From contig NC_092661.1 of NCBI RefSeq assembly GCF_032118995.1, positions 19,654,621-19,718,620 of the forward strand: a stretch of 64,000 bases of DNA, read 5' to 3'. This document shows positions 28,761 through 63,767 of this stretch, piece after piece; the stretch's first letter is position 1; every line of letters begins with the position of its first letter. Origin of the DNA: Asterias amurensis (lineage: Eukaryota). Under the pieces are notes generated by a model, which saw nothing but the letters and a program-made list of their open reading frames with translations, was not told the origin of the DNA and made no database searches. The position numbers and the translations under genes were made by a program.

Positions 28761-28891
28761 GTCGTGCAAGATGTCTGCCCAGTTTGAGTACGACGAATCG
28801 GGTGGCACTTCTCTCTATTTTCTTGTTTCTTTCTATGCCTTGTTTCTGTTCCCACTTACATATTACTTGTGGCCTTCTAAGCAAAAGAAAG
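28761..28891 (+). CDS. SEC63: SEC63 exon 1 (MSAQFEYDESGGTSLYFLVSFYALFLFPLTYYLWPSKQKK)
   Basis: Matches the vertebrate SEC63 N-terminus (MAGQQFQYDDSGNTFFYFLTSF…YYLWP); donor AAAG|gtgagt. Confidence 0.85.
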
Positions 28892-29926
28892 GTGAGTATG
28901 AAATGCGACTAATATAAGTGTTTTTTTTGGATGAAATATAAAAAATGGTGACAAGTGAAGTTTTATCTTACTACTGCCCAACTCTGGTCTGCTGCTGATT
29001 GGCATGACACTCTTCTCCGTCCATCTGGTATTCATAATCAACATAAATTGATTGAGAAACCATGCCAATTTCATGTGTGTTTTCTGCCAGAAACTGGCAA
29101 CCTGTCATTTAGTTATTGTTTAGGGCCTACTTTTAGTTTTTTTTTTTTAGTATAGTCATTTTATTTCTAGCCACACTTGTGTGGTCAAGGATAGCTGAAT
29201 CCAGCTGTCCTTGGTCTTGGCCACACAAGTGGGGCTAAATCATTTCTTGACATTTCATATTTAATATAAATAATTTTCATAAATACATAGTTCGATAACC
29301 AAATCTTCTAGGAAGAGCACGGATTTGATCTTCAATGGTGTAATTAATCAGTTAACACTACACATAAAGAAAATATTTTGAATAAATTACCAGAATTTTC
29401 ATGAACCTAACTATTAACCTAAACGCTAGTTGATGTTTTTTTAACTTCTCACTTGCAACATATCTATCAATCACTTCAGTGTAAGAAAACTAATTGACGA
29501 GAGCCACACCTACACAGTGGTTTATTTTATCCTGGTTGGTTGAGTTGAGATTTCGTTCAGAAATCTGAGGTTCAAAAAAATACTTTTGTGCGCATAAATT
29601 GATTTTATTATCGTCACTTTTTTTCCCGAAATTGTTTTTCTAACATAACAAATAAATCAATCAAATTTAAAATTCAAACAAGTTTAACAATATGAGGCAA
29701 AGGTTTATAGAAAATTTTGGTACTTTTTTTTTTGGGGGGGGGGATAATACCCCCACAACTATGCCTCTATTTGTGAGATTATTTTGCAATGAGATTGCAA
29801 AATTAGAAAGGTTAATTGTGGAGGCAGACAGTTCACTTGTGTCAAAGGTAATTGTATGACAAAAAACTAAAGAAACAACTTCAAGTTTAAAAAAAATGTA
29901 TGTAACGGAAATTAAAGAATTTCACT

Positions 29927-30300
29927 TAAAGCCATGTTACACTTTCGGTAAACAGTATTGTCCAAGTCCCACACTTCGTGTATCACAACTAATATATAAA
30001 ATGACAATCCTGTGGAAATTTAGGCTCAATCGGACATCGGAGTCGGGAGAAAATAACGGGAAAACCCACTCCTGTTTTCGCGCGCTTCGCGATGTTATGA
30101 CATGTGTTTATAACAAATCCGTAATTCTCGCTAACGAGAATTTATATTGTTTTACCGTTTTCTCAAAAAGTAAAGCATTTCATGGACTAATATTTCAAGA
30201 GAAGTCTTTCACCATTACCTTCTGTAAACCCTGTAAATTATTTGTAAATCTGTGAACTTTTTTTTTTTTTTCCTGTACCGAAAGGGTCCAATGGCTTTAA
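29927..30300. mobile_element. MITE copy B of the same family (TIR …ccgaaagggtccaatggctttaaag)
   Basis: Aligns along its length with 1022..1399; sits in SEC63 intron 1. Confidence 0.7.
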
Positions 30301-30731
30301 AGTTCAACAAGTTAGCCTAAATGCACCATATAGCAAATCTTTTCAACACAAAAGGACCACAATATGTAGTTTGGTTAGACGGTTACACATTTGTGAGTTC
30401 AATGAACAATCATGGTGTTTTGAGAGCAACTATCTATATGCTGAATCTGTCAATGATTAGTCTGAAGTTTTATTTTATACATAATCTACATGTAGTATAA
30501 GGGAACAAAAACTAAGGACAAAGGAACATCAATCATGGTTCATCAGGCAATTTTTACTCTGAAGTCTGTACTTGATGTGATGGGTTGCATGCTGCTAGGA
30601 GCTGTCAATATAGATGGACTCTATTATATCAAAAGTGGTAGAAGGAATATGGAAAATAACGGATAACTATTAACATTGTTTGTTTGTAAACTGTTCAATG
30701 ATTGTTAATGCTATTTTTTGTTTTTCATCAG

Positions 30732-30837
30732 ATGATCCAGAGAAGCTCAAGAAACAATGCCAATGTCATCCCTGCCTGGTCAAGAAAGCCAAACTCCAGG
30801 CAAAGAAACCCACTCAGAAACTTCGACATCTTCTGAA
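30732..30837 (+). CDS. SEC63: SEC63 exon 2 (DDPEKLKKQCQCHPCLVKKAKLQAKKPTQKLRHLLK)
   Basis: Acceptor tttttcatcag|, donor CTGAA|gtaagt; phase-consistent. Confidence 0.7.
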
Positions 30838-31059
30838 GTAAGTTGCATTGATGTCAAGTATTGTGTTAAAATCAAGCAGCTGGCATAGACATATCTATGG
30901 TAACGACCCTGTTTATTGAAATTTCAATAATTTGTTGGATTATCTGGCATTTTATGTTTGCATTTAGACTATTTTGTTCTTAGTAAAATTACATGTGCTT
31001 GATTACCATGAACATAAAATTAAGTTAAGTTTGAACTAAGTTTTTTTCCATTCCTGTAG

Positions 31060-31179
31060 GTGGGGTTTGTTATTTGGCGCTTGGGTATTGTTCATATATC
31101 TTGCAGTCCGGGCATCTCAAGTGGAACGAGATCATGTGGAATATGATCCATATGACATCTTGGAACTCGACCGAGTAAG
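31060..31179 (+). CDS. SEC63: SEC63 exon 3 (TM2 WGLLFGAWVLFIYLAVRASQVERDHVEYDPYDILELDR)
   Basis: Acceptor ttccattcctgtag|, donor GACCGA|gtaagt; matches vertebrate …EYQEYNPYEVLNLD. Confidence 0.8.
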
Positions 31180-31999
31180 TTTTCTCAATTATCAAAATTA
31201 CTCATGACTATTTATGACTCGTCGTTATTATATTTATATGTAGTATGTATTAACACTTCCTTGAAAAAATGTCTGTTTCATTGTTACAGACCTTTTGGCA
31301 AGTACCCATTTGGCATGCCCTAACTGTTGGATGAGAATTGTGCTTGTCTAGTTAGCGATCAAACTTGATCGCTGGCTAAACCAGCATGCACCTCATTCCA
31401 TGCCTATTATGCGCGTACCGAGTATTTGCGATGGATGACAGAATTGCGAAGGCTACCAATAAGAACAAATATTCCTGTCTGTATCGTGTAACTGGACTTT
31501 TGAATTGTGGGTGACACCTTCCCTTTCAGCCTTATCAATGAGTTTCATATCTAGAGTTCTCTCTATGCTTATCAAACCATTATGCACACGTTACGCCAAG
31601 CTAATGACCTTAGTTTCAATCCTTTGAATCCTAAGTCGTTAATCCTTAAATAATGTTAAAGAAAGGTGTATTTATCTTTGTAAGTATCTACTGTTTGAAT
31701 GGGTCAATGGAGATAACTGTTAACCCTCCTATAGGTTTATACACCAAGAAGCCTCAAAATCTCCCACATGGTACACACCAAGCAGTGATTTAACTCTTAT
31801 ACTTTCCTGTCATTGTGTTTGCATGTGATCCATCAGTACCACAGATTGCCACTGCAGAAACTGACTGAGGTTGAGAACCTTATCTCTTCCAATAGTTGCC
31901 CCCAATTCCATTGCAGTTGTGCACGGCTCATGGCTTCTCCAATTTAACACTCTCAATGAAGAACCTTGAGCAGTAGCTTTACTCTGTGTGCCTTATAGG

Positions 32000-32575
32000 C
32001 CTGGGCGAATTATTCGAATATCCGGTTAATGGCGAATAGGTTTTCCTATCTGTAACCACGAATGCCTTTTTTTCTTAACCGTATATCCGTATAGGGCGCG
32101 AATACCTATTTATAAACCAGATAGTTCTGTAATTACAACCAAGTAACCGGATATTCTTTAATATCCGAATATCCGCGGATGCCGGGCGACAACTGATATG
32201 AATGTTTTATCTGAATCCTTATGAAACTTCTATTAAGACAGCATAAAACAGCATAAATTAAGTATTTAACTATGCTCACCTCTGTGAAGAGTTAAAACAA
32301 TGACATTTCCGACGTATTTTGTTCAAAGATTACAAAAGTTTTTCCTTCACGTAGAGTCAATCACGATCAAAAGAAAAAATCGCCATCTTTAAATTAGATC
32401 CGGTCATTTTTATGAATGAACCGAGTGACACTGTCTAAAACTAATAATATATATATATTTTTTTTAATAGCGCCCTCTAGCGGCGAAAAAAACTATTCGA
32501 ATATCCAGTTAATTTCGGATAGTTGGCCAGCGGTATCCGAATAACAAAATTTCACTATTCGCCCAGAACTAGTGC
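32000..32575. mobile_element. Non-autonomous DNA element with TIR ggcctgggcgaat…attcgcccagaac and internal cgaatatccg reiterations
   Basis: Inverted termini read from the sequence; SEC63 intron 3. Confidence 0.5.
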
Positions 32576-32665
32576 CTTAAAATGCCACTGTTGTGCCATA
32601 ATGAGGTATGGGTTGGTATGGATAGTAGGATGGTTTTAATCCAGATGTATTTCTCTTCTATTCAG

Positions 32666-32777
32666 GGGGTAACACAAGCAGAGATTAAGAGGAAGTACCG
32701 TCTCCTGACTAAGACCAAACATCCTGATAAAGGAGGAGATCCAGTGGAGTTTATGAGAATAGCCAAGGCATACGCAG
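32666..32777 (+). CDS. SEC63: SEC63 exon 4, J-domain core (GVTQAEIKRKYRLLTKTKHPDKGGDPVEFMRIAKAYAA)
   Basis: HPD motif; near-identical to vertebrate SEC63 AEIKKQYRLLSLKYHPDKGGDEVMFMRIAKAYAA. Confidence 0.9.
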
Positions 32778-33295
32778 CGTAAGATACTTTCAGCTTTCTG
32801 TCATGACGTATTTATCTAAACTGTGAGAAAACTATTGTGTGATGATGTTTGGAGAAATGTTAGCCACAGTGTTTTGAGATGACCAGTTAAGGATTAAGCA
32901 TAACTTATGTAGACCATTTATTATGTGTGATATAGTGCACAGGTTCAATGTAACGAAGGTTTTTCAAGAAGGTGTTATATCCAGCATGTCTGAGTTGAAA
33001 CCATCAGTGTTGCATAATTAAGTACGTCAGTCTAAGTACACAGCTTAGTAGTTTAATTATTAACTGATTAACTTATTTACTAGTCTCACTCAAGTATAGC
33101 CCTCGTCATTGCCCAAGCTCTCTGTATCAACTGTCATGTTTTGAAAGGATCAAAAGTGACACTTCTCTGTTTTCTAACATGACTAGTCTGTTCATGCAAC
33201 AAACCTATTTTATTTGATATTTATTTTGCTTAGGCTTTCGCTATGGCAGTATGGGCAACTCATCTTCGAATGACTGGTAGTGGTTTTTTATCACC

Positions 33296-33466
33296 AAAAC
33301 CAGGGGTTGATTTCACAAAGAGTTAGGACTAGTCTTATCTCAAGTTAGGACGAGTTACTAGTCCTAACTTAGGACTAGCTGTACGTTTTTGATATCTCTT
33401 AGGACTGGTCCTAAGTTAGGACCAGTCCTAACTCTTTGTGAAATCGACCCCAGACCTTTAAACTTG
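33296..33466. mobile_element. Small palindromic MITE (TIR ggggttgatttcacaaagagttaggact…)
   Basis: Near-perfect inverted halves; shares the GGGG(T/C)CGATTTCA terminus with the elements at 44748, 61440 and 63768. Confidence 0.6.
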
Positions 33467-33503
33467 CCATAATTGTAACATAATTTCATCCTCCTTGATG
33501 TAG

Positions 33504-33565
33504 ATTAACAGATGATGAATCAAGAGAAAACTGGGAGAAGTATGGCAATCCTGATGGCCCTACAG
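33504..33565 (+). CDS. SEC63: SEC63 exon 5 (LTDDESRENWEKYGNPDGPT)
   Basis: Matches LTDEESRKNWEEFGNPDGPQ; acceptor cttgatgtag|, donor TACAG|gtgagt. Confidence 0.85.
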
Positions 33566-34047
33566 GTGAGTGCAACTAGACTAGTTTATCCAGTCCATTT
33601 AACTTTCCACCCTCGTAAGTTCTTATACAAAGCGCTTCTTACTTTATTGATGGGGTTAAGTTTGAATGATGAGAATTGTGAGACCAGTCTATAAAGCACT
33701 TTGAAAGGGTTTATAAGGTGATGTGGTTGCAATCTACCACCAACCATGCAACAAATCAAGTGTACTGGGTTCTTTTACATGCATTACAGAAGAGATGCAG
33801 AGGACTTATGGTTAGATGTCAATGACACAAGTATCTTAGCCAGGACCTGAACCCACACTCTGACAAGACCAGAACTGAAGTTCATTTTCTTTTGATTTGC
33901 CACTCCATATTCTTCACCATATATCTGTCTTCAAGTGTAGGCAAAGTAAAATGTATCTTCATCACCATTTTAGTAATTGTGTTATACACTGTTGACCATA
34001 TACTTTCTGTTTGTGTCTTATATAAGCGTTTTATCTTTTGATTTCAG

Positions 34048-34106
34048 CTACCAGTTTTGGAATTGCTTTGCCAGCATGGGTTGTGGATCAAAATAACTCC
34101 ATTCTG
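34048..34106 (+). CDS. SEC63: SEC63 exon 6 (ATSFGIALPAWVVDQNNSIL)
   Basis: Near-identical to vertebrate ATSFGIALPAWIVDQKNSIL. Confidence 0.85.
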
Positions 34107-34489
34107 GTAATGTAGTCACAAGCCTTATTTATTTATAATTCAGTGTTATGTTAAGGGAAATTGATTTCAGACACTCTGCATTTATACCAGCATTGTTACC
34201 TTCAATTTGTGTGATTGGGTAAGAACTACATCTGAACTGTGGACATGAGAACAAATGAAGTCCACATAAGGATAGGTTTTGAAACACTATGTATAAAATA
34301 TTAAGTTTTCTACCTTGTAAAAAATGCTTTTCTTTTTTGTTACTTCTTTAAATGTAATTTTGGGGCAATATTCTGTTTGCAAAGAATATGATCTTTCTTC
34401 AGTGTAAAAAAGAACGGAATGTCCACAAAGTGACTGCAACACAGAGCTGTATGTTCTAATATAACTTGTTTTTCTTCTTTGGATATTAG

Positions 34490-34540
34490 GTACTTGGTGC
34501 ATATGGATTAGCGATAATGGTTATCTTACCCATTGCTGTG
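34490..34540 (+). CDS. SEC63: SEC63 exon 7 (VLGAYGLAIMVILPIAV)
   Basis: Acceptor ggatattag|, donor GCTGTG|gtgagt. Confidence 0.8.
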
Positions 34541-34705
34541 GTGAGTTTTAATTCATAAATCTTCTAACATTTTTATTAAGGTTCAAGCTGAGGTAGTTTG
34601 TCTAAATATTTAGTGAGACAAAATGTGTTGAGTTTTCACCCTCAAGCTGGATCCAATCTTGAATCTTTGTTGATGTTTGTATGTCTGATATACACTTTCT
34701 TCCAG

Positions 34706-34814
34706 GGTACATGGTGGTATCGCTCTATTCGTTACAGTGCAGTTGAAGTACTTCTTGATACATCTCAACTCTTTCTTCACTTCATCTACAAGACACCATG
34801 CTTGAATCTTAAAA
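34706..34814 (+). CDS. SEC63: SEC63 exon 8 (GTWWYRSIRYSAVEVLLDTSQLFLHFIYKTPCLNLK)
   Basis: Matches vertebrate GSWWYRSIRYSGDQILIRTTQIYTYFVYKT. Confidence 0.85.
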
Positions 34815-35364
34815 GTAAGCTGTATTTCTACAAATATAACATGGTTTGAGGATGAACAATTGGTATCAGCTCCTTGAGGTATTGGAAGATGACAAACTAA
34901 TCTGTCAACTTCCTATACCCATGAGGAGAGCTTATATCGATTGTCCACCTGAATTGAACCCTGATGTTTTCTTTTATTGTAGTGCATCTTTATTGTCCAC
35001 TATTTTCTCTAGCAGATTGACGTTTAGAAGTAATGCGATGCATCTTTTTATTTGTACTTGGCTGGCTAGGGCAGAAAGTGCGCTCATAGTAGAATGTTGT
35101 TCGTGCATCCCATAGGACAGTATTGTTTGTTTCTGCTTTAGTGTATGTGTGTTTTCTTTGTTCATGAATATGCGTGCCAAGCTTGGTAAACAGCTCAAAT
35201 AGCATCTGGCCTGTGATGGTGAATGGCCTAGTTAGAATTCAACTCTTGATCATGAATATATATGAGCTATAGTTATTTTGATCTGTCATTGTTTGATTTT
35301 AAATGGATTTTCCCTTTTGATAATGCCTTGTTGTATGACTTGAGTTGTCTGTATTTTTCTTCAG

Positions 35365-35459
35365 GAGCTTTGATGATATTATCAGGATCTTTTGAGTTTG
35401 AGGAGAAGCATAACAGTGAGATTGTGCTTCGGCCGAGTGACAATGAAGAACTTCCTCCG
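35365..35459 (+). CDS. SEC63: SEC63 exon 9 (ALMILSGSFEFEEKHNSEIVLRPSDNEELPP)
   Basis: Acceptor tttttcttcag|, donor CCTCCG|gtaagc. Confidence 0.75.
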
Positions 35460-35689
35460 GTAAGCGCTTACAATTCCATCTAACCCAAACTCACACAGTC
35501 TTATGTTGAATGACAATTTTATTCTCCAGTTTGTAGCATTTAAAAGCTTTAAGAGAGAAGACTTGAGTGAATTTATGGTCCTTAATGTTTCTGTTGTCAT
35601 TTCTTCAAGGGTATCGTCTACTAAGCACTGTCCTTCATAAGGCTTGTGAGTTTAGCATACCTCTGATACAATAGATTGTAGTTATACTA

Positions 35690-36760
35690 CATATCTATTA
35701 ACCCTCCTTGTGCTGTTTGTCCTTTCAATGTCATTCACTGTGGTTTGGAATGATAGATGAAGTAGAAGTAGGTCTTCCTGCAATATGATATCATGTCCAT
35801 TGTCCACAAAGCTCTAAATGGCAAGGCTCCCCACTATATTTCTGAACTGCTTCAAGTTTACACTCCATCAAGGAATCTTCGATCAAGTTCCATGCTTCTC
35901 CTCATTGAACCCAAGTCTCGACACTCATGGGGTGACAGGTCTTTTTCTTCAGCCGCCCCACGCATCTGGAACTCTCTACCACTTAATCTTCGATCTTGTG
36001 TTAGTACCGCAAAATTCAAGTCTCTTCTCAAAACTTATCTTATGTCACAGGTTTTCAATGACTAATTTTGTTGTGTCTGTTTTTCTTTGTGTTGTGTTTT
36101 GTTTTTGTTTTGTTTTTGGTTTTTACTGCGCCTTGAACACCCAGCAGGGTGGATATGTGCGCATTACAAGTCTTATTATTATTATTATTATGTATTGAAT
36201 GTATCAATGCAGTACATAGTCAACCCTCCTACTGTCTGATCATTAAATGTCATCCACTGTGGTTTGGAATGATGGATGAAGTATGTCTTCCTGCAATATG
36301 ATATGTGTTGAATGTATCAATGCAGCACATAGTCAACCCTCCTACTGTCTGATCACTAAATGTCATCCACTGTGGTTTGGAATGATAGCTGAAGTATGTC
36401 TTCTTGCAATATGATATCATGTGTTGAATGTATCAATGCAGTACATAGTCAACCCTCCTACTGTCTGATCATTAAATGTCATCCACTGTGGTTTGGAATG
36501 ATAGATGAAGTATGTCTTCCTGCAATATGATATGTGTTGAATGTATCAATGCAGCACATAGTCAACCCTCCTACTGTCTGATCACTAAATGTCATCCACT
36601 GTGGTTTGGAATGATAGCTGAAGTATGTCTTCTTGCAATATGATATCATGTGTTGAATGTATCAATGCAGCACATAGTCAACCCTCCTACATTTCAACCA
36701 CTAAATGTCATCCACTGTGGTTTTGAATGATAAATAAACTGTATAAGCCTGGTATATGAT
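35690..36760. repeat. Tandem repeat, ~120-bp unit ×~5 (…gtcaaccctcctactgtctgatcattaaatgtcatccactgtggtttggaatgatagatgaagtatgtcttcctgcaatatgatat…)
   Basis: Direct periodicity; SEC63 intron 9; interrupted by the SINE insertion. Confidence 0.85.
35793..36200 (+). mobile_element. SINE-like element with an (ATT)n tail, inserted into a 120-bp tandem-repeat unit
   Basis: Carries the widely dispersed pseudo-ORF motif …PSRNLRSS…GDRSFSSAAPRIWNSLP…FKSLLKTYL typical of Deu/CORE-type SINEs; interrupts a repeat unit between …gatatcatgt and gttgaatgtatc…. Confidence 0.55.
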
Positions 36761-37031
36761 GTGGTGAATGTATATCTATACAGCACACTGTCAACCCTCC
36801 TACTGTAATGCAATGTTTTGTAAGGCGCATAAACTAGACCACTCTGCAATATGATATGTACACAGTTAGTTCCATGCCTAGTTGTGCCACCATACACAAC
36901 CCTTGCTGCTGAATGGTTTTAAATGGTGGGTCAACTTAGTGGAAATGTTACACAGAGTAGGAGAGTTTTAATTTGAGATGACTTGACTATAAGGATGTAC
37001 ATGACATAACTGTTTTGTGATGTGTGTTTAG

Positions 37032-37170
37032 CTGATGCGTGAATTTGACAGCGAGTATGGGAAGAAGAGTAAGGAGAAACCCTTTGTGTATCCATACAGC
37101 CGTAAAGCAAGGATTCTTCTCTATGCTCACTTAGCTAGGACTGAACTCCCACTAGAAACTCTGGATGTTG
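37032..37170 (+). CDS. SEC63: SEC63 exon 10 (LMREFDSEYGKKSKEKPFVYPYSRKARILLYAHLARTELPLETLDV)
   Basis: Matches vertebrate …CPYSLKARVLLLSHLARMKIPETLE. Confidence 0.8.
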
Positions 37171-37456
37171 GTAAGTCACCTCAAATCAAACTTTGATAAT
37201 GCACCTATTTGTAACTTATTCACAACTTGAATGATGCTTGTGGCACCTAAACATTATTACTCCTTTCATTCAGCCATTTGAAGAACTGAAACTCACACTT
37301 ACCACATGTAGTTTATTGTCTAGCTGTTTTACTAATTGATTAAATTACCATAAATGAACTTGGACATGGCTTGTGACATCTACGTTACAACCTTCTTGCT
37401 TACAACACTGTTAGTGTGAACATCTTACCCTAATGTTTTGCTTTGATTGGTTACAG

Positions 37457-37549
37457 ACAAGAAGTACATCGTCAGCAAATGTCCGCAGTTGATTCAAGAA
37501 ATGATCAATACTGCCTCTCAGCTTGTCACATGGAAAAACTATGGCAGAG
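37457..37549 (+). CDS. SEC63: SEC63 exon 11 (DKKYIVSKCPQLIQEMINTASQLVTWKNYGR)
   Basis: Matches DQQFMLKKCPALLQEMVNVICQLI. Confidence 0.8.
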
Positions 37550-38010
37550 GTAAGAAGGCTTATATCAAGGGTTGCCAAAATAATACCAGAGCCTGTTTGA
37601 ATTGTTATACTTCATAACGGAGTGCTTTGTGGCAAAGTGAACGTGCACTTTGGTTTGAATTCTGGTCATGACTCTTGTGTCTTTGAGAAAGACACTTTAC
37701 TGTAATTGCTTCTCTTCACCCGGGAGTTAATGAGGCACCTGTTAGGGTTGAGGTTGTTGTTGTGAATGATTAGCAATCTGTGCACCCATTTGCAATGGTT
37801 CAGGGAAAGATTTAAGTCTGATAAACAGCTGTATCAAATGGTGCAAATTGCTTGGCAGACTATTTCTATTCAAATAATTTCTGTCATAAGCAACTGTGCT
37901 TAGAACTTTTTAATTTACAGGAGCAAGGCATTAGATTTGTTGTTATTGCTATGGCTGCAGTGTTCATGGTGCATTTTATAAATGATTGTAATTTGTTATT
38001 TTTTTATTAG

Positions 38011-38141
38011 TGGCTAAAGAGCCTCGTCTTGAGTCCATAGAGTTCCTGATGCGTCAGAGCCCAATGATTGTCCAAGCTTGCTGGGACAAAACACCTCTAC
38101 TACAACTGCCACATTTTAATGAAGATACACTGCGAAAAAAG
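38011..38141 (+). CDS. SEC63: SEC63 exon 12 (VAKEPRLESIEFLMRQSPMIVQACWDKTPLLQLPHFNEDTLRKK)
   Basis: Matches …SPLLQLPHIEEDNLRRV. Confidence 0.8.
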
Positions 38142-38349
38142 GTACAGTTTGGATTCAGCAAAATCTTGTTATTGTATTTTCTCAAGCTGTCAACTTTGGC
38201 CCTTCAAACCTGTTTCTAAATACTCAACAATTTGATTGTAATAAGTATTCAACTCATCAACCTTTGTTATCATCCATACTTACAATGGAGATGCATGTTC
38301 CTGCTGCATCAGAGATTCAGCTAATTTTCTATATCTGTTATCTTTCCAG

Positions 38350-38402
38350 CGCCACATTAAAGCCATTAGTCAGTTCGTCAAAATGAAGGATGCCGATAGA
38401 AG
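38350..38402 (+). CDS. SEC63: SEC63 exon 13 (RHIKAISQFVKMKDADRR)
   Basis: Acceptor tctttccag|, donor GAAG|gtaaga. Confidence 0.7.
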
Positions 38403-38759
38403 GTAAGAGTAAATAAAGAAAACAATCAAGATGAATTAAACTGCAGGTCCAAAACTAAACTCCCTGTTCCCAAACTTCAGTCTTTGCATTCAAAGAAGTA
38501 AACGCATATGAGGGATCCTTCCTTTACTGTAGCTGCACCTAGGATTTGGACAAACATTTTCCCCAACGTCAGACAATCTTCTGCAAAAGCCATTTTCAAA
38601 ATAAGTCCTACCTTTTTTACGAGAGCTTACTGTAGGGTGCTATGAGTAATGACCATTAGACTGGCACCTTAGAAATTGATTGACTTATTGAGTGATTGAC
38701 TGATTGGTCTTTATTTACAGCAATGGTTTATTGTTGATCCATAAATTTGTTTCTTGCAG

Positions 38760-38854
38760 GAACATTCTTCGTCATCTTCATGAGAAGCAATATCAGGACA
38801 TTCTGAACGTCTTGAAGTCACTGCCCAAATTGGATGCAGATGTGGAGCTAGAAG
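38760..38854 (+). CDS. SEC63: SEC63 exon 14 (NILRHLHEKQYQDILNVLKSLPKLDADVELE)
   Basis: Matches vertebrate HTLLHFLEDEKYEEVMAVLGSFP. Confidence 0.75.
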
Positions 38855-39080
38855 GTAACAATAATTGAGTAACATTTTGTTATTCCCAACTATTGGCACT
38901 TTAATAATCAAAACCTACTATCCCAACAAAATGTTACTCATTATGTGTCATCCCAAGTGGCAATTATTTTATAAACTTATTATTTATGTCCTTTGAGAAA
39001 ATCTCCGTCTGCCATTTGATGAGACAATTGTGTTTGGATTTAACTGACTTGTGATTGTTTTTTTTTGATGATTTATTTAG

Positions 39081-39163
39081 TTCTTGCTGATGAGGACAAG
39101 AAGTCGATAACTGCAGGGTCTTTGGTAACGGCCACAGTCACCCTGAGGAGAGGCACATTTCAG
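39081..39163 (+). CDS. SEC63: SEC63 exon 15 (VLADEDKKSITAGSLVTATVTLRRGTFQ)
   Basis: Matches VLDDEDSNNITVGSLVTVLVKL. Confidence 0.8.
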
Positions 39164-39694
39164 GTCAGTTACCATGGAAATACTTACATTTTCACAAATT
39201 ATATCAGGAACACAGATTGAATCCTCAGGATTATGGAGTTTTTAAGTTTCTATTAACCCTAACCCTTCAAAATCCGGTGTCGTCTGATTTCAGATGATTA
39301 AGAACTGTAGTGAATAACGATTGCTAAGGTATACCAATCTTACCTTGGTCCAGTTTGTTGTGGAGTACCAGTGAATGTGGAATGGGGGATAGTGGAAGGT
39401 TTAGGTCACCTGTGGCCAATTTGGCCTAGGGACTCAAGGGTTAATGAGTACTTCATTGGCACCAGGCCTGGAATTTCTTCTTAGAAAGGGCAAGGCCATT
39501 TTCATTTTTTGCAAAGGGAAAACTTTTGAAGGGGCACAAAGGCCAAGACCAGGGGCACTGAAGCCATGGCCTCCGTGGCCTGTGTGTAACTCTAGGCCTG
39601 TGGCACCGTGCACAAAGAGAATAGAATGCAAGTTTTGTGTTGGCTTGTTACACTAGTAATAAAGTGATGAGTGTTTTTCTTGTTTTCTATGTAG

Positions 39695-39772
39695 GTGTTG
39701 GATGATGAAAGCAATGATCCAGTAGATGCTGTGGAAGACGCTGTTGTAGAAGACACATTAGATGAAGATAAA
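39695..39772 (+). CDS. SEC63: SEC63 exon 16 (VLDDESNDPVDAVEDAVVEDTLDEDK)
   Basis: Acceptor ttttctatgtag|, donor ATAAA|gtaaga. Confidence 0.65.
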
Positions 39773-40129
39773 GTAAGACTAGAACCTAATTGTCTTGATA
39801 AGAACTAAATCTTCAAGTTAGACTTCACAAACAAGATCTTCAACTTTCTCAATTGCAACTTTTTAATTTAGATTGACGAGGGTTGTTGTTAACACGCATA
39901 CCCCATATCCACCTGACTTGTCACAGAACATGAAAACCAATCCTGGCTAAGCCCATTGAGGGCTTTATTACTGCATTTCAAGAAACACTCATTATTAACT
40001 GCTTTGCAAATAAACATATCCCAACAAACTGTGTACTGTTGGAAAGAGTACATAAATCTCTCTTATGTGATAAGTATATTTTATAAGAGATGTTAGATTT
40101 GCATCCGGGATAAAGAATATTAATTTTGG

Positions 40130-40575
40130 TTTTACCCATACACCGATGTGTGTTAGCACTGTATATTCAGTACTTTCCCGAGTCCTGTGAAAAATAAAAA
40201 TCACAGGCATGTTACTCGGGTGGGATTCGAACCCACGACCCTTGCAATTCTAGAGCAGTGTCTTACCAACTAGACTACAAAGGTTGCCCGGTAGCTGGAG
40301 GCAGTTTGAATCCTATGTTTTGGCAGTGGGTACCGCAACGATATAAGAGATGTTAAATTTGCAGGTACCCGCTGCCAAAACATAGGATTCAAACTGTCTC
40401 TACCTACCGGGCAACCTTGGTAGTCAAGTTGGTAAGACACTGCTCTAGAATTGCAAGGGTCGTGGGTTAGAATCCAACCCGAGTTTACATGCCTGTGATA
40501 TTTTTTTACAGGACTCGGGAAAGTACTGAGTATACAGTGCTAACACACATTGGTGTATGGGTAAAAACAAAAATT
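40130..40575. repeat. ~440-bp near-perfect palindrome built from two head-to-head tRNA-SINE copies
   Basis: Left arm 40130-40335 is the reverse complement of right arm 40365-40575, with very few mismatches; SEC63 intron 16. Confidence 0.85.
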
Positions 40576-40749
40576 AATATTCTTTATCCCCGATGCAAAG
40601 TATATTTGAGCAAGTCGGCTAATTTTGATTTACAGATTTGACTGTCTGAAGAATCGAGTGAATAACAAAAACCAATATTTCATGTTGACACCAACTTGAC
40701 TGCAATCAAATCTTGAGTTGTTGATGATTCATGTTGCATTCCTCATCAG

Positions 40750-40965
40750 ACTGATTCACCAGTACCACACAAACCCAAGACTCATGTTTGGGAGAAACAC
40801 AGAAGAAAAAAGAACAAAGGAGGAGGAGGAGGAGCTAAGAACAAAGCCCAGAAGAAGCAGGCTACTAAGAAAGCAGCCGCAGCAGCAGCACTGAAAGCAG
40901 CGGAGGAATCACCTCAACACAATGGCAAAGGAGCCGCTAACCATGTTAGCAATAATACTAAAGGG
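40750..40965 (+). CDS. SEC63: SEC63 exon 17, basic Lys/Ala-rich segment (TDSPVPHKPKTHVWEKHRRKKNKGGGGGAKNKAQKKQATKKAAAAAALKAAEESPQHNGKG…)
   Basis: Corresponds to the basic KSKKKKPLKKK region of vertebrate SEC63. Confidence 0.7.
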
Positions 40966-41613
40966 GTAGGTTGTTGCCCAGAATAATATTGCACTGAGTT
41001 TCCATACGGCTATATGGATTCACTTAGGGAAAGAATATTCCAATGTTGGTTCATCAACCTTAACCACCCCAACCCATTGAAATCCAACTGCGTGTTTTGT
41101 TTGATTCTGTTGGACTAAGGACTGTGCTGTGCTCCCTTAACATGAGATCAGGCATACCACCATAATCAGAGTCCAACTTTGGGTTTTGAGTTACCATGTG
41201 GTATTGGATTTTCTTAGAGTTAAAAAGGCAGTGTACACAGATTGCCTGAACGCAGATACGCACAGATAAATACTATTACAGCATACTCTTTTCAGGTTCC
41301 ATACGCCTCTCTTAATATTTATGCATGAGGTTCGTCACAATCTAACCCAAAACGAGGCTAAAGGCGCAGCACTGCAAGTGGTGGCAGACTTGCGCCCATA
41401 GCCTCATTTTGGACAAAAATTATGATAAATATTAAGAGATGTGTATAGATGTGGAACTATAACTAGAATTGAAGAAAAAAATTCATGATCTTTACTGAGA
41501 ATCGAATTGAAAATCATTGTCCTTTAAAAAAAAAAAAAAAAATTATGACTTATTAAAATTTATCAAAACTACTCCAAAATTAATGAAGATGAATCTGATG
41601 TTTTTGTATTCAG

Positions 41614-41702
41614 GCTATCCAGGAGCTGGATCCCAATAAAGACTCGGGTGACAGTGGAAGTGAAAGTGACAATGAACAGGAGGATAACAGTAAACATTCA
41701 AG
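41614..41702 (+). CDS. SEC63: SEC63 exon 18, acidic (AIQELDPNKDSGDSGSESDNEQEDNSKHS)
   Basis: Acceptor tgtattcag|, donor CAAG|gtcagt; phase 2. Confidence 0.7.
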
Positions 41703-41937
41703 GTCAGTTTGTAAAACTTACCCTTAGATTTTTTTTTGTCAACAAGTTCACCAATTTGCTTATAAGTGTTTGCATCTATAGTTGAGATGTTATGCAAAAT
41801 AAATTTTGAGTTTTGTTGATACGCCTTGACGCCAAAGAAGAATGATCGTTTGTTGTGTATTCTTTCCGGAAGTGCATGTCGGATTCAAGGAGTTCAACAG
41901 TGACTAACATGGTTGAGTATTCATTTTAGATGGTGAC

Positions 41938-42328
41938 GGTTTTTAAAGACACTGGACACGATTGGTAATTATCAAAGACTAGTCTTCCCGCTTGGTGTAT
42001 CTCAACAAATGCATAAAATAACAAACTTATGAAAATTTGAGCTCAAACGGTTGTCAAAGTTGCGAGAAAAAAATGGAAGAAAAAACACCCTTGTCACACA
42101 AAGTTTTGTGCTTTCAAACGCTTGATTTCAAGACCTCAAATTCTAAATCTGAGGTCTCGAAATCAAATTCGTGGAAAATTACTTATTTCTCAAAAACTAC
42201 GTTACTTCAGAGGGAGCCGTTTCACACAATGTTTTATACTATCAACCTCTCCCCATTACTCGTTACCAAGTAAGGTTTTATGCTAATAATTATTTTGAGT
42301 AATTAACAATAAAGTCCACTGCCTTTAA
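41938..42328 (+). mobile_element. MITE family 2 copy (SEC63 intron 18)
   Basis: Same TIRs and internal hairpin. Confidence 0.8.
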
Positions 42329-42439
42329 GGCAATGTGTGATGGCGCACGTCTGCCTTTTATTTAACACTGGCAGGTGGGCTAATCTAGCCCCAGCTGTCA
42401 CCGTTTTGGACACAGCCTAACTTTAAAATCAGAAGAAAT

Positions 42440-43019
42440 CATTTTTTACCAAGAGAAGATATTAATAGCATATTTGTATCTCTCTGTTGCCGTGACAGTG
42501 ATGATAATAAAGGAAGATATTAATAGCATATTTGTATCTCTCTGTTGCCATGACAGTGATGATAATAAAGGAAGATATTAATAGCATATTTGTATCTCTC
42601 TGTTGCCATGACAGTGATGATAATAAAGGAAGATATTAATAGCATATTTGTATCTCTCTGTTGCCATGACAGTGATGATAATAAAGGAAGATATTAATAG
42701 CATATTTGTATCTCTCTGTTGCCATGACAGTGATGATAATAAAGGAAGATATTAATAGCATATTTGTATCTCTCTGTTGCCATGACAGTGATGATAATAA
42801 AGGAAGATATTAATAGCATATTTGTATCCCTCTGTTGCCATGACAGTGATGATAATAAAGGAAGATATTAATAGCATATTTGTATCTATCTGTTGCCATG
42901 GCAGTGATGATAATAAAGGAAGATATTAATAGCATATTTGTATCCCTCTGTTGCCATGACAGTGATGATAATAAAGGGGATATTAATAGCATATTTGTAT
43001 CTCTCTGTTGCCATGACAG
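42440..43019 (+). repeat. Minisatellite, 55-bp unit ×~10 (gaagatattaatagcatatttgtatctctctgttgccatgacagtgatgataataaag)
   Basis: Each unit reproduces the SEC63 exon-19 acceptor (ccatgacag|TGATGATAATAA); only the last copy opens a reading frame. Confidence 0.9.
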
Positions 43020-43161
43020 TGATGATAATAACAGCAGCGATGGTGGAGAGCAAGAGGAAGAAGAATGGGAAAGGTTACAGTCTGGGATCACAAGGAAAGA
43101 GAAAGTTCTAGAAGGAACATCTAAGACTTCTCATGAGGTCCATTGTCCATACTTCCCGGAG
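43020..43161 (+). CDS. SEC63: SEC63 exon 19 (DDNNSSDGGEQEEEEWERLQSGITRKEKVLEGTSKTSHEVHCPYFPE)
   Basis: Matches …EAEWQELQQSIQRKERALLETKSKITHPVYSLYFPEE; the acceptor is the last copy of a 55-bp tandem unit. Confidence 0.75.
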
Positions 43162-43794
43162 GTAAGATATTATCATTGTGTGTCCTGTAGATTGTGAAGC
43201 ACATTAGAATGTTGTGACTGTCAGAGTGATGGTTCTAGTTACATGGACCACTCAGAGATTGTGTTATATTGTCTGTTCAACTTTGTTACTACTGGGAACT
43301 AGAGCTTGATCATCTACAGTATCGTTCACTCTAGGTTCTGAGAATCAGATTAGGCTATGATAAAAGTAGTCTGGTGTTAGCGCAAATATCACTTGCAGTG
43401 AAATCAAGGCATTGACATTTTGCTGTGACTAGAGGCAGGTATTTTCAAATACTACAACGATATAGTAAGGTTTGTGGTAACAGCATGTAATGATAATCTC
43501 TAAATGAGTTGGAGTGGTTCTGAAAAGAAGATGATCAGAGCATACTGATTGAAGCGTCAAATTGAAACCAGCGGTTCTTTTCAGAACCACCCCAACTCAT
43601 TTACAGATTATCATTACAGGGTGTTACTGCAAACCTTACTATGTTGTATTTCAACCATGCAGAGTTTCTAATCCTACAAATACTTCAACATTGATTCAGC
43701 CAACTGCCACAGACATAGCCCAACACTTCCTTAGCCCAAAACCCTCAGTTCATACAAAGCCTTAGACTAACATTCCTTTATTATTTATCACCAG

Positions 43795-43893
43795 GTAAAG
43801 CAGGAATGGTGGTGGATCTACCTAGCTGATAGGAAGACACATCGTATTATCACTTTACCTCAGATGATTTATGACCTTGTTGATGAAAAAGAT
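43795..43893 (+). CDS. SEC63: SEC63 exon 20 (VKQEWWWIYLADRKTHRIITLPQMIYDLVDEKD)
   Basis: Near-identical to vertebrate KQEWWWLYIADRKEQTLISMPYHVCTL. Confidence 0.9.
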
Positions 43894-44526
43894 GTAAGTA
43901 TACAAATCGTATCAAATACCTAGGTGCAAATTAGCTTAACGTTTCTGTGCACAAATATTGGACAATCTTTCCATTAATTGGCCCAGGTTGACCATAAATT
44001 TGCACAAATATTAACAAAGCACAGTATAACAACAAGTGCTATATAGCAGAGGCAAAACATAATTAATGTAGTAATAAGGGACTTACAGTTGTGTAGTGGC
44101 TAAGATATATGCTTTGGAATGTGCAGGTTGCGAGTTCAAATCCTACCTTAGGCATAAATAAGAATATGTTAGGGTAGGTGGGTAGGGATTTTTTTCTTAT
44201 TTTTTTCCTCGCAGCAACGAAAATTACATGTTTTCTAATTGTTTAACACAATAACAAAAGAAAACACACAACAAATAGTATATTTTTAACCTCTTGATGA
44301 AAATTATTTTATTTATATGTCTTTAATAGATTTAAATCATTAAATTTCTTCCCTTGAAAAAATAAAAATATCCAGGGTCGGCCATATTTTTAGGGTAGGT
44401 CGGGTTACGCCAACATAACATTTTTTTGTATGCCTTAGTTGCCTAGCCTGAAGTGTAAAGTGCTTATTCAGACAGTCTTTTGAAACATTTATTTGAGTCG
44501 TTACAATTGATCTTTTCCTCCCTTAG

Positions 44527-44628
44527 ATCGAGTTGAAGTTCCCTGCACCTGTTAAAGGGTTGTATCAATACCAGCTCTGTGTTCGCTCTGACTGCTATCT
44601 AGATCTGGATTACATCAAATCAATCAAA
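44527..44628 (+). CDS. SEC63: SEC63 exon 21 (IELKFPAPVKGLYQYQLCVRSDCYLDLDYIKSIK)
   Basis: Matches VELKFPAPGKPGNYQYTVFLRSDSYMGLDQIKPLK. Confidence 0.9.
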
Positions 44629-44747
44629 GTAAGCGTAGCATTAAATACTCATTCATTACTCTCTTCACTAATATGGATAAAGAAAGCCCCTCAAATAGGA
44701 GTAGACCCTCTAAAAGTTGCCTGCTTTCTAGAATGTTGGGTTGAAAT

Positions 44748-44936
44748 CTGGCCCCGATTTCATAGAGCTGCTTAAGCAGAAAGTATTGCCTTACATTTTT
44801 CAATAAGCAGGTTACCAGTTACATTTTGAACATGTAAAATGGTGTTTTAGTTGGTAACATTATTCTGGTGAGCATAATTTTGTTGTGCTTAGCCACTTTT
44901 ATTGCTTAAGCAGCTCTATGAAATTGGGCCGTGCCC
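44748..44936. mobile_element. MITE (TIR ggccccgatttcatagagctgcttaagcag…)
   Basis: Inverted termini; SEC63 intron 21. Confidence 0.6.
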
Positions 44937-45005
44937 TTAACTTCCATAGAGATGTAAACAAACTGATTGCTGATTGCATTATAATCAAATTCTGATTTCC
45001 TCCAA

Positions 45006-45144
45006 GGTGGATGTGAAAGAAGCCAAGAAGGTAGAAGAGATGCATCCTCAATGGGACATCTCAGATGATGAAGATAAAGAAGAGGAAGGAGATAGTGATG
45101 TTTCTGATTATACCACCGATGATGAAGGTAGTGATGAAGAATAG
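45006..45144 (+). CDS. SEC63: SEC63 last exon (VDVKEAKKVEEMHPQWDISDDEDKEEEGDSDVSDYTTDDEGSDEE*)
   Basis: Matches the vertebrate …HPQWDTAIEGDEDQEDSE acidic tail; stop TAG at 45142-45144. Confidence 0.85.
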
Positions 45145-45757
45145 ATGGAGAACAACCTCCCAAATGACGACAACCTACATCCTCATCATGTTTGTCTTCA
45201 TTCCTAAAGAAAACATCAATACTTGACACCAATAGACCTTATCCACATGATGTCATACCAGTAGGGCGCCCTCACCTAGAGTAGAGTTAGAACAGCAGCT
45301 GTTCATTGGCCGAACCTGTGTGTTGCGCATACAAATCTGTACGTTTTGATTGCTTCGTCATGGTTTTACCTCTAAGATGGTGGCTGAATGAGTGGATGAC
45401 ATCAATGCATAAGTTCTATGTCTAAAAGTTACAGACCTATCCTGCATGTATAAAATGCTTTATTTAGGCTCTGGGGTTGAAAATGCGCTATATGCCTTCT
45501 ATCCATTTTAGGTTGTAAATGTTCTGTTATAATGTAGGAGACGGAAAACACTGTCATGTTTTGTACCGTAACAGTCATCTTTATTGCTGCCATTTCAACC
45601 CAAAGTGCTGTTTAACACTGTGTTATGATGACCCTTATGAGGACATTGGATTTAAGGATTGAGTTAGTGTCATTATGAGGTGTGATGATGAAATAAACCA
45701 GGCTCTTAGCCCTGGGTGTTTGACTGCAGCGAGGACGCTCCTAAGGGAGACAATAAA

Positions 45758-45920
45758 GCATGGTTCATACTTCCTGCGAATGCAAAGCAAATTTTCGTTA
45801 CAGGGCTGTTTTCGTAGCAAATGTTTCGCACAACTGAACTGTTGCAAATTATTCGTTTTGAATTTGTGATGTAAAAATAAAGTTCACTTCGCATTCATAT
45901 TTGCAGGGTGTATGAAATTG
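45758..45920. mobile_element. MITE (TIR ttcatacttcctgcgaatgc…), related to 61250..61432
   Basis: Imperfect inverted termini; similar to the copy at 61250. Confidence 0.45.
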
Positions 45921-48382
45921 GGCTTTAGGGATGGTTCCAGTTATTTTAAGCTTACCAATGGACTGGCAGTGTGTCATGATTTGTGGAATACATGTAGATT
46001 GGGTAGGTTTATATTGGACAGCAGGAGAGGGTAGGTTTATATTGGACAGCAGAAGAGGAGATTCATCACAATCCTTTCCAAACAGATAAATGTATGATGA
46101 TTAGTCATTTTAGAATAGTCCAGGTGAAAAGTAGTACTTTAGATGATTTCAGATTTTATTTGGTTTTTCCCGGCAGATTTTTTTCTTCATGTCAGTTTGA
46201 CATTTCTTATTGATGGTTTTTGTGAATACCATTCAAAAACAAATTTAATCTAAAAAAAACAATTACTGCAACGAAGCTGCAATTATCTTGACAACTTGTG
46301 TCTTCTATGTAAATTAAAATATGTATGACTATTTTTGGGAGTATGTTGTGTTGAAACTGTATTTTGAGCTTGTTTACTTTATTAGTCCATAGAGTTTGAC
46401 CCAAAGGAAATTGTTGTTTTAGAAAACATCCAAACATGTACCAGATGTACTGGTCTTACATAAATCTATATTTGATGTCTACTGAGTGTATGAAGATGGT
46501 AGGACTGCTGTATTGTACATCCCTTGTTAATCAAGTTTTGGGTTTCAAATTTGTCAAAGTCAAAACCCATATAAAGTTATGATAATATTTTGAAGCATTT
46601 TTTTAAATAATGATGATCTAAATGTATGTATAATGTTTAACTAGCAATGCGTAAAATTTTCAATGTCTCTTGACTTTTAATCATAAGTGAAAATGGGCTT
46701 TGATTTTGGGTATACAACCAACAGTGAAGCATCGTTTGAGCATCTGTTATATTAATAGAAATCACAAATGCTGTTCAGGTTAACTTGCCAACAAACACTG
46801 GTGAGACTGTTTTGTAGTGAATATGGCATTCTGTAATTGACTTTTACCCAACAAAATGATAGGAAAAGATGCTTGACAATAAACCCAATTAATACTTACT
46901 TGCCTTCAGCACGTTTGAGTGTCCATTAAATACTATAGTTTTTTCTGAAACCCTATAATTGTGATGATTATCACATGAACATAAAGAATTGTACCTATTT
47001 AAGAATGAGGTGTGCAAGGTTATACTTTGTTAGCTTGGGGAAGGAGTCTTTGCTGTTTTATCCAATTGTGGCATTAGTTAAAAGTAACATGTTTTTTAAG
47101 GTATTTATTATCAACAAAACGGGGATTATCAGTGAGAATTTCTTAGAGATAAGGAATTCTGTGAAATAGATGTTAATTTAATAAGCTACTGTTGGCAATA
47201 GGTGACTGCAGGTTTTACCAGGTAACAGAATTGTTCTTAGAAATGCGTGCACGCTCAAAACTGTGCAAACAACTGAAATTTACCTGGTATTTAAGTCTGC
47301 TGCCACCTTGTGTTTCAAAGTATCCCAATCTGATCTATGTGTCTCATAAGCTGCTTTTAAGTATTTATCGGTTATCGATTGTGTAAGTTAGGACAGTGAA
47401 GTCCTAAAATGTAATCAGTTTAATTTCTGACCCACTATCAGTATAAATTATAATGCTTCAATCAATAATGTTTTCATTTCAATGTTTTCAATCTTTCAAA
47501 ACTTTTTTGCCACATTAGTTGTGTTCCTTCATAACTGTGAAATTGCTGAGCTCATGTTTCATCCTTAATTCTTAGCAATTAATTAATAATATTGTACTAG
47601 TCAAAATATACTTGTAACTTTTTATTTTTCTGGATAATGATTGTATAACACACTTGATGTTTTGATGTAAGCTTCCTTCCCCATGAATTATTAATGAAGA
47701 AAATAAATGAGCACGCTTCCAATAATAGAGTGTGAAATCTTGTTGTCATTTGAAATTAGTCTTTGTTCGTTGAATATTATTGGCTATTCCGTGATTTAAA
47801 AAAAAATGTTTCTGTTTTTCTACTTTTGTTTGTTTTCTTTCTTTAGGGAAAACCTCTTTGAAATTATTGTACATCCTGCTCGCATTGTCGGGGTAAATCA
47901 TGACTAATACACGTGTGAGGGTGTGTAATTTGGGAGACTGTGTTGTATGTAGGGCGCCCTCAATAGTTACCGTTTTACATGTTCTTAAACAGGTAGTTCA
48001 TGGTAAAATATTTTTAGTGTTCTTGTAGAAGTTTAATGTAAAAACTGAATATTTTGTACTTTGGAAATATTGCAATGATAAATTTAGTATTGGTTGCAAT
48101 TAGAATTTAAAACTTTATAAAAGTTAAAATTAAATGGAATTTTTGGTTATCATCATCTGCACTACAAAATTGCAGTTATTAAGCATTGAAATTTATTAAG
48201 TTTAGTACCTCGACTGGTATAACATGTTACAAACGCATTATGTTGAAGGTGACCTGATTATTCTGAGGAGGAAATCTCGAGATCGCATAATGCGAAAAAA
48301 TGCATACGTATCGTTTTAGAAGAACTTGTTGATAGAGTTAGTAACTACTGTATATTGATTAAAAACTTTCACTCAACAAATA

Positions 48383-51059: not shown

Positions 51060-51770
51060 CTTTGGTGAAAAAGAAATGATAAGTTTTTAAATTCAACCTT
51101 TCAAAGAAAGTCGTATAGCTTTTTGCAGTTTATTTATAATGACTCAATATGATAGTTCTTAAATTGTTGGCGTGTCATGGTAGAGTGGTTAAGAGCACTG
51201 GATTCAAGCTCTGGTGTTTCTGATCAGCAGAGTGTTGGTTCGATTCCCGGTCGTGACACTTGTAACCTTCAGCAAGATACATTACCATGATTGCTTTGTC
51301 ATTCAGATGGGACATTGAATCGTTGGTAGTGCACACAAAAAACAGAACACTTATCAAGAAAGATTAGGGGTTAACCCTGGTGTTTCTGTTTGACATAGCT
51401 GTGATTGAAATACCGTTTATTATTATAGCAACCTTTCAAAGAAAGTCGTATAGCTTTTTGCAGTTTATTTATAATGACTCAATATGATAGTTCTTAAATT
51501 GTTGGCGTGTCATGGTAGAGTGGTTAAGAGCACTGGATTCAAGCTCTGGTGTTTCTGATCAGCAGAGTGTTGGTTCGATTCCCGGTCGTGACACTTGTAA
51601 CCTTCAGCAAGATACATTACCATGATTGCTTTGTCATTCAGATGGGACATTGAATCGTTGGTAGTGCACACAAAAAACAGAACACTTATCAAGAAAGATT
51701 AGGGGTTAACCCTGGTGTTTCTGTTTGACATAGCTGTGATTGAAATACCGTTTATTATTATAGCAAGCAC
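51060..51770. repeat. Tandem duplication, ~335 bp ×2, each containing a tRNA-SINE fragment
   Basis: Identical 60-aa artefact ORFs at 51175-51357 and 51510-51692; SFT2D intron 2. Confidence 0.85.
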
Positions 51771-52378
51771 CCTTGTTTACAGGTTTCCTCAGGCTTACAA
51801 GCTACAGTGAATATGTTCATTTATGAGGTATCCTTGGTTTTAATACCAGAAATGTGTTTACCATACTATTATTAAAGAAAACTGAATTGTAGTTCCCAAA
51901 CCATCACTGATGCAAGTTTACTCAAACAATTTCAAAAGTGCTAAACAACAAAGAAAAAAACAAGTCATTGTTTGTTTAGATCCATGATTTAAAGATGAGC
52001 GTGCTAGAGTTTATCTGACATTGTGAACTTTCCACCACCTGACAGTCCACTGTAGCATTGATATTCCCAACGTCCAGTAACATCAAGTTATTTGCTGTGC
52101 TCTACTCATTTGGTAATCTCACAGCAATGTCAGGGTAAGTACGGAGGTAGCAGCATTCTTTCCTGGTGGCTTGACTGTGTTGCTTGGAATAGCTGCTGTG
52201 GTTCCTGGTGGCTGGGTTTAATTGCTTACAATGATTTGAACTAGCAGCCTTAATTTCTGTTTTGTTTTGTTTGTTTCTATTATATGCTGCCAAAACAACA
52301 ATTGTTGTGCATGCATGACTGCACATTAATTAGAGCATTATATACTAACTTCAAACCACTTTATTATTATTAACCACT

Positions 52379-63422: not shown

Positions 63423-63767
63423 TTTGAAAAATTTAAGCACCGAAAATATACACAACCATGTTTGATATTCTTAGCCTTTAAGATGGGTCACCAGTTACGA
63501 TGGCTGTTGACATATGGAATTACGGGAAGATATAATTGCATTAGATAACCTCGTAACGTACTGTAAAGTGGTTCCACAATGTACCGAATAAAATGCGTTC
63601 CTCGCCGTTTCTAACATTATCAAATTTGTCTTTCAAGAGATGGAAAGAAAAGATCATTTGAATTGTTTGTTTAAAGTGGTTCACTGTACGTGACGTCAGA
63701 CGTTAATCAATACTCTCCCCGCGTGCAATACTATAAGCTCCTTTGCAGTAGTAGCCCTGACCCCGAT

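Follow-up and report, generated by a model that had tools for sequence, protein, structure and literature searches.

Ten near-identical 3′ splice sites in tandem at exon 19 of a SEC63 gene: a further example of the boundary-spanning minisatellites known as mirages

The stretch of DNA analyzed here (64,000 nucleotides in full, hereafter the window) contains a complete SEC63 orthologue. The exons were mapped via tblastn, using the human SEC63 protein as a lead only and the database protein P0001 in a second round, and the splice sites were set by the reading frame and GT-AG rules. The assembled coding sequence (2289 nt) is free of internal stops, and all introns are GT-AG (Table 1). The translation displayed Pfam matches to the DnaJ domain (PF00226, 5.9e-14, aa 105–162) and to Sec63 Brl (PF02889, 1e-16, in two stretches), its top solved-structure matches were Sec63 chains (e.g., 7kak_D at 3.1e-36), and it carries an acidic C-terminus; the J-domain and Sec63 Brl features that mark a SEC63 protein are thus both present. 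The protein is ~50% identical to human SEC63 and 49–57% identical to its best database match. The human SEC63 query gave no tblastn match to exon 2, so the Cys-rich stretch encoded there (KKQCQCHPC) is apparently absent from it. Intron 16 harbors a near-perfect palindrome of ~500 bp, consisting of two inverted tRNA-like (SINE-like) copies with Rfam tRNA matches on both strands, which could form a very long hairpin in the pre-mRNA; its arms measure 121, 71, and 36 nt (93%, 94%, and 94% complementary, respectively).

The feature of interest lies at the boundary between intron 18 and exon 19. The Ser codon at aa 603 is split across these exons (AG from exon 18, T from exon 19), and the junction made with the acceptor at 43020 would read ...TTCAAG/TGATGATAATAAC in cDNA. 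This join, from the donor at 41702, is in frame within the complete ORF of 762 aa and 22 coding exons, which bears out the original prediction that the last copy of a tandem array serves as the acceptor of exon 19. The junction falls in an acidic, Ser-rich linker whose length and sequence vary in every sequence of the alignment (seven homologues); strong conservation begins at EWERLQ (aa 618) and takes in the C-terminal domain, and exon 19 aligns to the homologues from EWERLQ on.

We did note a NAGNAG-like site (AACAG/CAG/C, AACAGCAG) 15–18 nt inside exon 19. Both of its AGs are in frame, dropping 5 or 6 codons (frame worked by hand), and small in-frame acceptor variation at the authentic copy is possible via this site. 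As these two CAGs keep the frame, one of them (AG ending at 43034 or 43037) could instead be the true acceptor of exon 19, in which case the repeat unit described below would be wholly intronic and its "gacag" not authentic. We regard this as highly improbable, given that the spliceosome, scanning downstream from the branch point and tract, normally picks the AG that it reaches first (the scanning rule), and that the 20 nt preceding the two AGs are purine-rich. Furthermore, SSDD is likewise found at the corresponding position of P0001, the closest homologue, in agreement with the codons from TGATGAT, which supports this heptamer as coding.

Upon inspection of this boundary, we found one strong tandem array of head-to-tail units (TRF: period 58 bp, 10.0 copies, 97% matches, score 1105, and no indels within TRF scoring). 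The unit joins the 3′-terminal 46 nt of intron 18 to the opening 12 nt of exon 19, and cag/TGATGATAATAA is present in 10/10 copies. A 33-nt core of the unit gave 10 matches in the window, all in the array, against 0 expected from dinucleotide-preserving shuffles. The prediction of ten tandem units at this acceptor was thereby confirmed, as was the reiteration of the authentic 3′ splice site together with the first 12 nt of exon 19, which follows from the register of the units and the frame of the last copy. The predicted unit length of 55 bp was incorrect: both TRF and the register give 58 bp, and only the final spacing, between copies 9 and 10, differs (57 bp), because the last unit has AAAGGGGATATT in place of the AAAGGAAGATATT of the other units. 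Likewise, the string ttgccatgacag, expected in every unit, occurs in 8/10 copies, the exceptions being copy 1 (ccGtgacag) and copy 8 (catgGcag).

The pyrimidine tract of the unit carries a T>C change in copies 7 and 9 and a C>A change in copy 8. Four point differences aside, the interval −46..+12 is the same in all ten copies, and each unit contains a branch-point-like TTAAT (A at −34), a moderate pyrimidine tract, and CAG. Units 2–6 are 100% identical, with variants confined to units 1 and 7–10. Copy 10 is the sole copy that runs on into exon 19 sequence, such that the authentic copy sits at the edge of the array adjoining the exon body. We rejected the notion that the array is part of a transposable element, as the unit core occurs nowhere else in the window and a nearby dispersed repeat stops 125 bp before the array. 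The latter belongs to a family of ~400 bp with five copies in the window (77–86% identity).

Table 1. Coordinates of the SEC63 gene, the acceptor array, and other repeats in the window.
Feature	Position	Strand	Details
SEC63 orthologue, ATG to stop	28771..45144	+	22 coding exons, 762 aa
SEC63 exon 2	30732-30837
SEC63 intron 9 minisatellite	36189-36806
SEC63 intron 16 palindrome	40098-40599
Rfam tRNA match in palindrome	40219-40278	-
Rfam tRNA match in palindrome	40414-40486	+
Exon 18	41614..41702	+	ends with AG (two bases of split Ser codon); donor AAG/gtcagt
Intron 18	41703..43019	+	1317 nt; 796 nt minus nine extra units
Tandem array	42455-43031	+
Exon-side first bases, copies 1-5	42499, 42557, 42615, 42673, 42731	+
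Exon-side first bases, copies 6-10	42789, 42847, 42905, 42963, 43020	+
Pseudo-acceptors 1-8	42497..42904	+	use would give SDDNKGRY-stop, exon of 257-663 nt
AG ends, pseudo-acceptors 1-8	42498, 42556, 42614, 42672, 42730, 42788, 42846, 42904	+
Pseudo-acceptor 9 and 57-nt last unit	42961..43019	+	AG 42961-42962; exon 199 nt
Exon 19	43020..43161	+	142 nt, aa 603-650; acceptor AG 43018-43019; donor GAG/gtaaga
NAGNAG-like site in exon 19	43030-43038
Purine-rich GAR stretch, GGAGAGCAAGAGGAAGAAGAATGGGAAAGG	43045..43074	+	follows copy 10 only; enhancer-like by composition
Dispersed ~400-bp repeat, copy in intron 18	41906-42330
Dispersed ~400-bp repeat, other copies	22359-22743; 52378-52734	+
Dispersed ~400-bp repeat, other copies	53638-54027; 63034-63462	-
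78-bp minisatellite	1677-3853
DDE_3 transposase remnant	10025-10414
Tandem tRNA-like SINE units	10842-11163
Rfam tRNA matches in SINE units	10983-11055, 11099-11170
335-bp tandem duplication	51094-51766

According to the original prediction, every copy but the last would lead to an immediate stop. This stands for copies 1–8, where exon 18 spliced to the array would read ...NSKHS-SDDNKGRY-stop. As three further exon junctions follow the stop, such transcripts would, if made, be typical substrates of nonsense-mediated decay (NMD). The stop-introducing potential of regulated unproductive splicing (of the AS-NMD or poison-exon type) is accordingly present for these eight copies. Copy 9 departs from the pattern: use of this copy (42963) would remain in frame, meet no stop, and insert 57 nt, or 19 aa (DDNKGDINSIFVSLCCHDS), because the last unit is 57 nt long and its altered start takes the TAA out of frame.

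Given that the ten sites are alike over −46..+12, discrimination between them must rest mainly on context beyond +12. The pyrimidine tract of the unit is 65% Y over −23..−4, compared to a mean of 72% in the 19 other SEC63 acceptors, with 3/19 of these as weak or weaker; being on the weak side, it suggests that copy 10 probably depends on exonic help. The 60 nt that follow copy 10 are 77% purine and contain 7 GAR triplets and 3 GARGAR, compared to 53–55% purine and at most one GAR after copies 1–9 (53% and 0 GAR after copy 9). By its composition alone, the GAR stretch downstream of copy 10 looks like an exonic splicing enhancer. The GC content of the unit (31%) is close to that of SEC63 introns (35%), and that of exon 19 (44%) to that of SEC63 exons (43%). 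SEC63 exons range from 51 to 216 nt, a range that includes the exons begun at copy 10 (142 nt) and copy 9 (199 nt), with copies 1–8 giving exons of 257–663 nt. On this compositional evidence, exon-adjacent copy 10 is most likely the acceptor used, via exon definition and enhancer proximity.

The splice signals are intact in all ten copies, and we found no sequence feature actively silencing the upstream ones. RNA structure masking the upstream copies was considered and rejected: the fold of 42900–43170 is no better than that of shuffled sequences (z = −0.83), and intron 18 and exon 19 contain 0 inverted repeats of ≥14 nt. The units are also poor candidates for mini-exons, as the best GT within the unit matches 4/9 donor consensus positions. 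A second, recursive round of splicing following use of an upstream copy was set aside too, since the first round would regenerate only CAA/GTGATG, which is one base off register and would shift the frame (by inspection). A search of a 5.8-billion-protein collection with the C-terminal 314 aa, including exon 19, returned no transcript or ORF from the same species or a close relative, the best match being 49% identical.

The in-frame outcome at copy 9 raises the question of whether this copy is a genuine alternative acceptor, giving an isoform with 19 additional residues, and whether the frame-restoring change was selected to disarm the most competitive pseudo-acceptor. The last unit is indeed open in frame at 57 nt, the 199-nt exon lies inside the range of the gene, and the added residues would enter a linker whose length differs among homologues, where they would likely be tolerated, though their hydrophobic core (INSIFVSLCC) is unlike the acidic linker that surrounds it. 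With regard to chance, an in-frame open unit results from 25/58 of the possible single-base deletions per unit. A random 1-nt deletion among the nine units that could be hit would thus produce an open last unit in 25/522 cases (~5%), which is mildly suggestive of selection; given an indel in that very unit, the figure is 43%, and the outcome calls for little explanation. Edge units of arrays also normally gather variants anyway, and the sequence past copy 9 is still intron-like in its purine and GAR content. We therefore treat the 57-nt frame-restoring last unit as a hint, mildly suggestive at most and no evidence of selection, and consider an isoform from copy 9 unlikely.

Tandem repeats that span exon–intron boundaries are known in amphioxus, where they have been termed "mirages" (PMC3087553). 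The original description concerned Adh3 (Canestro et al. 2002, as cited in PMC3087553), and further mirages have been seen in the globin genes BflGb6 and BflGb9, in troponin C (TnC), and in PGBD5 (PMC3087553, PMC3902484). The term is not known to have been used outside cephalochordates. Many mirage units keep AG/GT signals, and yet splicing was regular by RT-PCR, with no aberrant mRNAs (PMC3087553, PMC3902484). Mirage arrays are unstable in length (PMC3087553, PMC3902484), and in the globin genes the inner units are homogenized and the edge units divergent (PMC3087553).

The SEC63 array is a mirage in every structural respect. Like those of amphioxus, it has a unit of minisatellite size lying across an exon–intron boundary, splice signal included and duplicated (the boundary being set here by the frame of the 762-aa ORF and by homology), and homogenized inner units with diverging edge units. 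The layout is the same as that of BflGb6, whose mirage unit runs from the 3′ end of an intron into the 5′ part of exon 2, with haplotypes of 6 and 3 units (PMC3087553) and the authentic copy at the array edge. The SEC63 array differs in its host gene, in its unit length (58 bp, compared to 10–72 bp in Adh3 and 150–160 bp in BflGb6), and in that its penultimate unit is in frame. For the published mirages, normal splicing and haplotype differences in copy number are on record. Searches of the literature turned up no other natural minisatellite that reiterates a 3′ splice site, except in amphioxus.

The identical inner units and divergent edges are typical of a young array homogenized by unequal exchange, which is the mode of origin that we infer. 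The 16.4-kb SEC63 gene has 42 exon–intron boundaries, and a founding unit of 58 bp placed in it at random would straddle a boundary ~15% of the time; the boundary location therefore needs no special explanation. The window is rich in such repeats, with no fewer than four further minisatellites or tandem duplications (78 bp × 28, 113 bp × 5.4, 116 bp × 2.8, and 335 bp × 2). The first of these (93% matches) has a higher-order period of 389 bp and, on its minus strand, a repetitive 159-aa ORF that is probably meaningless. The second, which may also be described as 229 bp × 2.7, is a further minisatellite in SEC63 itself, wholly within intron 9 and touching no exon boundary. The 116-bp units are tRNA-like SINE units adjoined by a DDE_3 (Tc1/mariner-type) transposase remnant. 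The 335-bp duplication is 100% identical, and thus very recent, and has tRNA-like sequence within its unit.

Tandem arrays are error-prone in assemblies, and the amphioxus globin study noted that a mirage was misassembled in the draft genome and that two haplotypes had 6 and 3 units (PMC3087553); the copy number or arrangement seen here could by the same token be an assembly artifact, or belong to one unusual, possibly deleterious haplotype. We think this very unlikely, as the surrounding gene is intact and the distinct variants in consistent order, together with the clean 57-nt last unit, are hard to obtain by assembly error. An exact search of metagenome contigs with the 27-nt junction gave 0 matches, and a second allele was not found there. 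A protein-guided search of the same type of contigs identified JACSEG010014907.1 (positions 1–1771), which is collinear with positions 44644–46633 of the window at 75–84% DNA identity, with 98% aa identity in the last exon, and which therefore derives from a related species. This contig covers the last exon and 3′ flank of SEC63 only; the JACSEG01 project should hold the orthologous intron 18/exon 19 boundary. A protein-guided search of prokaryotic genome contigs gave 0 matches.

Outside amphioxus, a close parallel is the 37-bp VNTR in intron 7 of human F7 (Borensztajn et al. 2006), where, as in the SEC63 array, an edge unit lies across an exon–intron boundary of an essential gene, in this case that of exon 7, resulting in 5–9 identical donors in a row (PMC1557585). 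Splicing takes place at the exon-adjacent donor alone; the remaining donors, though functional, stay silent, which neither structure nor frame explains (PMC1557585). The F7 array repeats a 5′ splice site downstream of its exon, whereas the SEC63 array repeats a 3′ splice site upstream of its exon, and each repeated acceptor brings its own branch point and pyrimidine tract; the rules of selection need not match those of F7. Internal tandem repeats at human exon–intron boundaries, known from segmental duplications, are also comparable, in that minisatellite expansion alters the length of an exon or intron and can unmask cryptic splice sites (PMC2812944). The human repeats were found as differences between paralogues, many with alternative transcripts or new introns (PMC2812944), whereas SEC63 presents a single gene with an uninterrupted array. 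Lastly, acceptors of the NAGNAG type share with the SEC63 array the competition of several AGs at one exon start; their AGs lie 3 nt apart behind one branch point and tract, whereas the SEC63 acceptors lie 58 nt apart with a full signal set each.

These systems bear on the functional reading put forward in the original prediction, in which the upstream copies act as cryptic acceptors that send transcripts to NMD and array length could modulate splicing fidelity. Spelled out, this would mean that the upstream copies are used at appreciable rates and that array length tunes SEC63 output or splicing fidelity. The signals of copies 1–8 are intact and the same as those of the authentic site, their stop comes after 8 codons with three junctions downstream, and they are transcribed ahead of the authentic site. 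Early work in which donors or acceptors were duplicated is contradictory, as summarized in the discussion of PMC1557585, with some experiments favoring the copy first met in the 5′-to-3′ direction, and alternative transcripts are often seen at human boundary repeats (PMC2812944). Against this, splicing was unaffected in the published mirages and in the F7 VNTR (PMC3087553, PMC3902484, PMC1557585). The upstream copies also lack exon-like downstream sequence, the exons begun at copies 1–8 would exceed any in the gene, and the array looks very young (five identical units), with no sign of conservation or of selection for regulation. Heavy loss of SEC63 product would moreover be costly, because SEC63 is a core translocon component. 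Such a role for the array is possible, though unsupported by the data obtained here and with published precedent against it, and we judge appreciable use of the upstream copies to be distinctly unlikely.

The reading that we favor, with a probability of roughly 70%, is that of a mirage-type minisatellite in which the exon-adjacent copy is spliced, the nine upstream copies are largely silent, and the array is functionless. A 58-bp segment across the intron 18/exon 19 boundary would have been duplicated in tandem, after which slippage or unequal exchange would have raised the copy number to ten, in minisatellite-prone genomic surroundings. The spliceosome would pick the copy adjoining the exon body, copy 10 being favored because GC-, purine-, and GAR-rich exon sequence follows it alone, because it gives a normal exon of 142 nt, and because its weak tract probably needs help. 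The nine upstream copies would then persist as largely silent pseudo-acceptors within an intron lengthened from 796 to 1317 nt. Splicing may still leak at a low level and so give rise to NMD substrates; leakage via copies 1–8 would yield stop-containing transcripts, and leakage via copy 9 would add 19 aa to a disordered linker without harm. We infer that the array itself would be neutral or mildly harmful.

The SEC63 array is thus a further example of the known mirage category in a new host gene, and should the host not be a lancelet, it would extend mirages beyond the cephalochordates. It is a caution for annotation, as predictors and aligners can start exon 19 at any of ten positions, nine of them wrong or alternative. 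It also illustrates that ten near-identical 3′ splice sites, each with its full complement of signals, can follow one another in an essential housekeeping gene, and amounts to a natural experiment in which ten acceptors, alike over −46..+12 with four point differences, differ in position and downstream context. Junction counts at the array could weigh exon definition and enhancer proximity against a first-come-first-served rule, as an acceptor-side counterpart of the F7 study. In the doubtful event that the array is not silent, with a copy-number-dependent share of pre-mRNA lost to NMD and the 57-nt last unit selected to neutralize the strongest competitor, a hypervariable minisatellite would set the dosage of an essential translocon gene in a heritable manner, and the locus would provide a natural assay in which ten sites compete to serve as the 3′ splice site.
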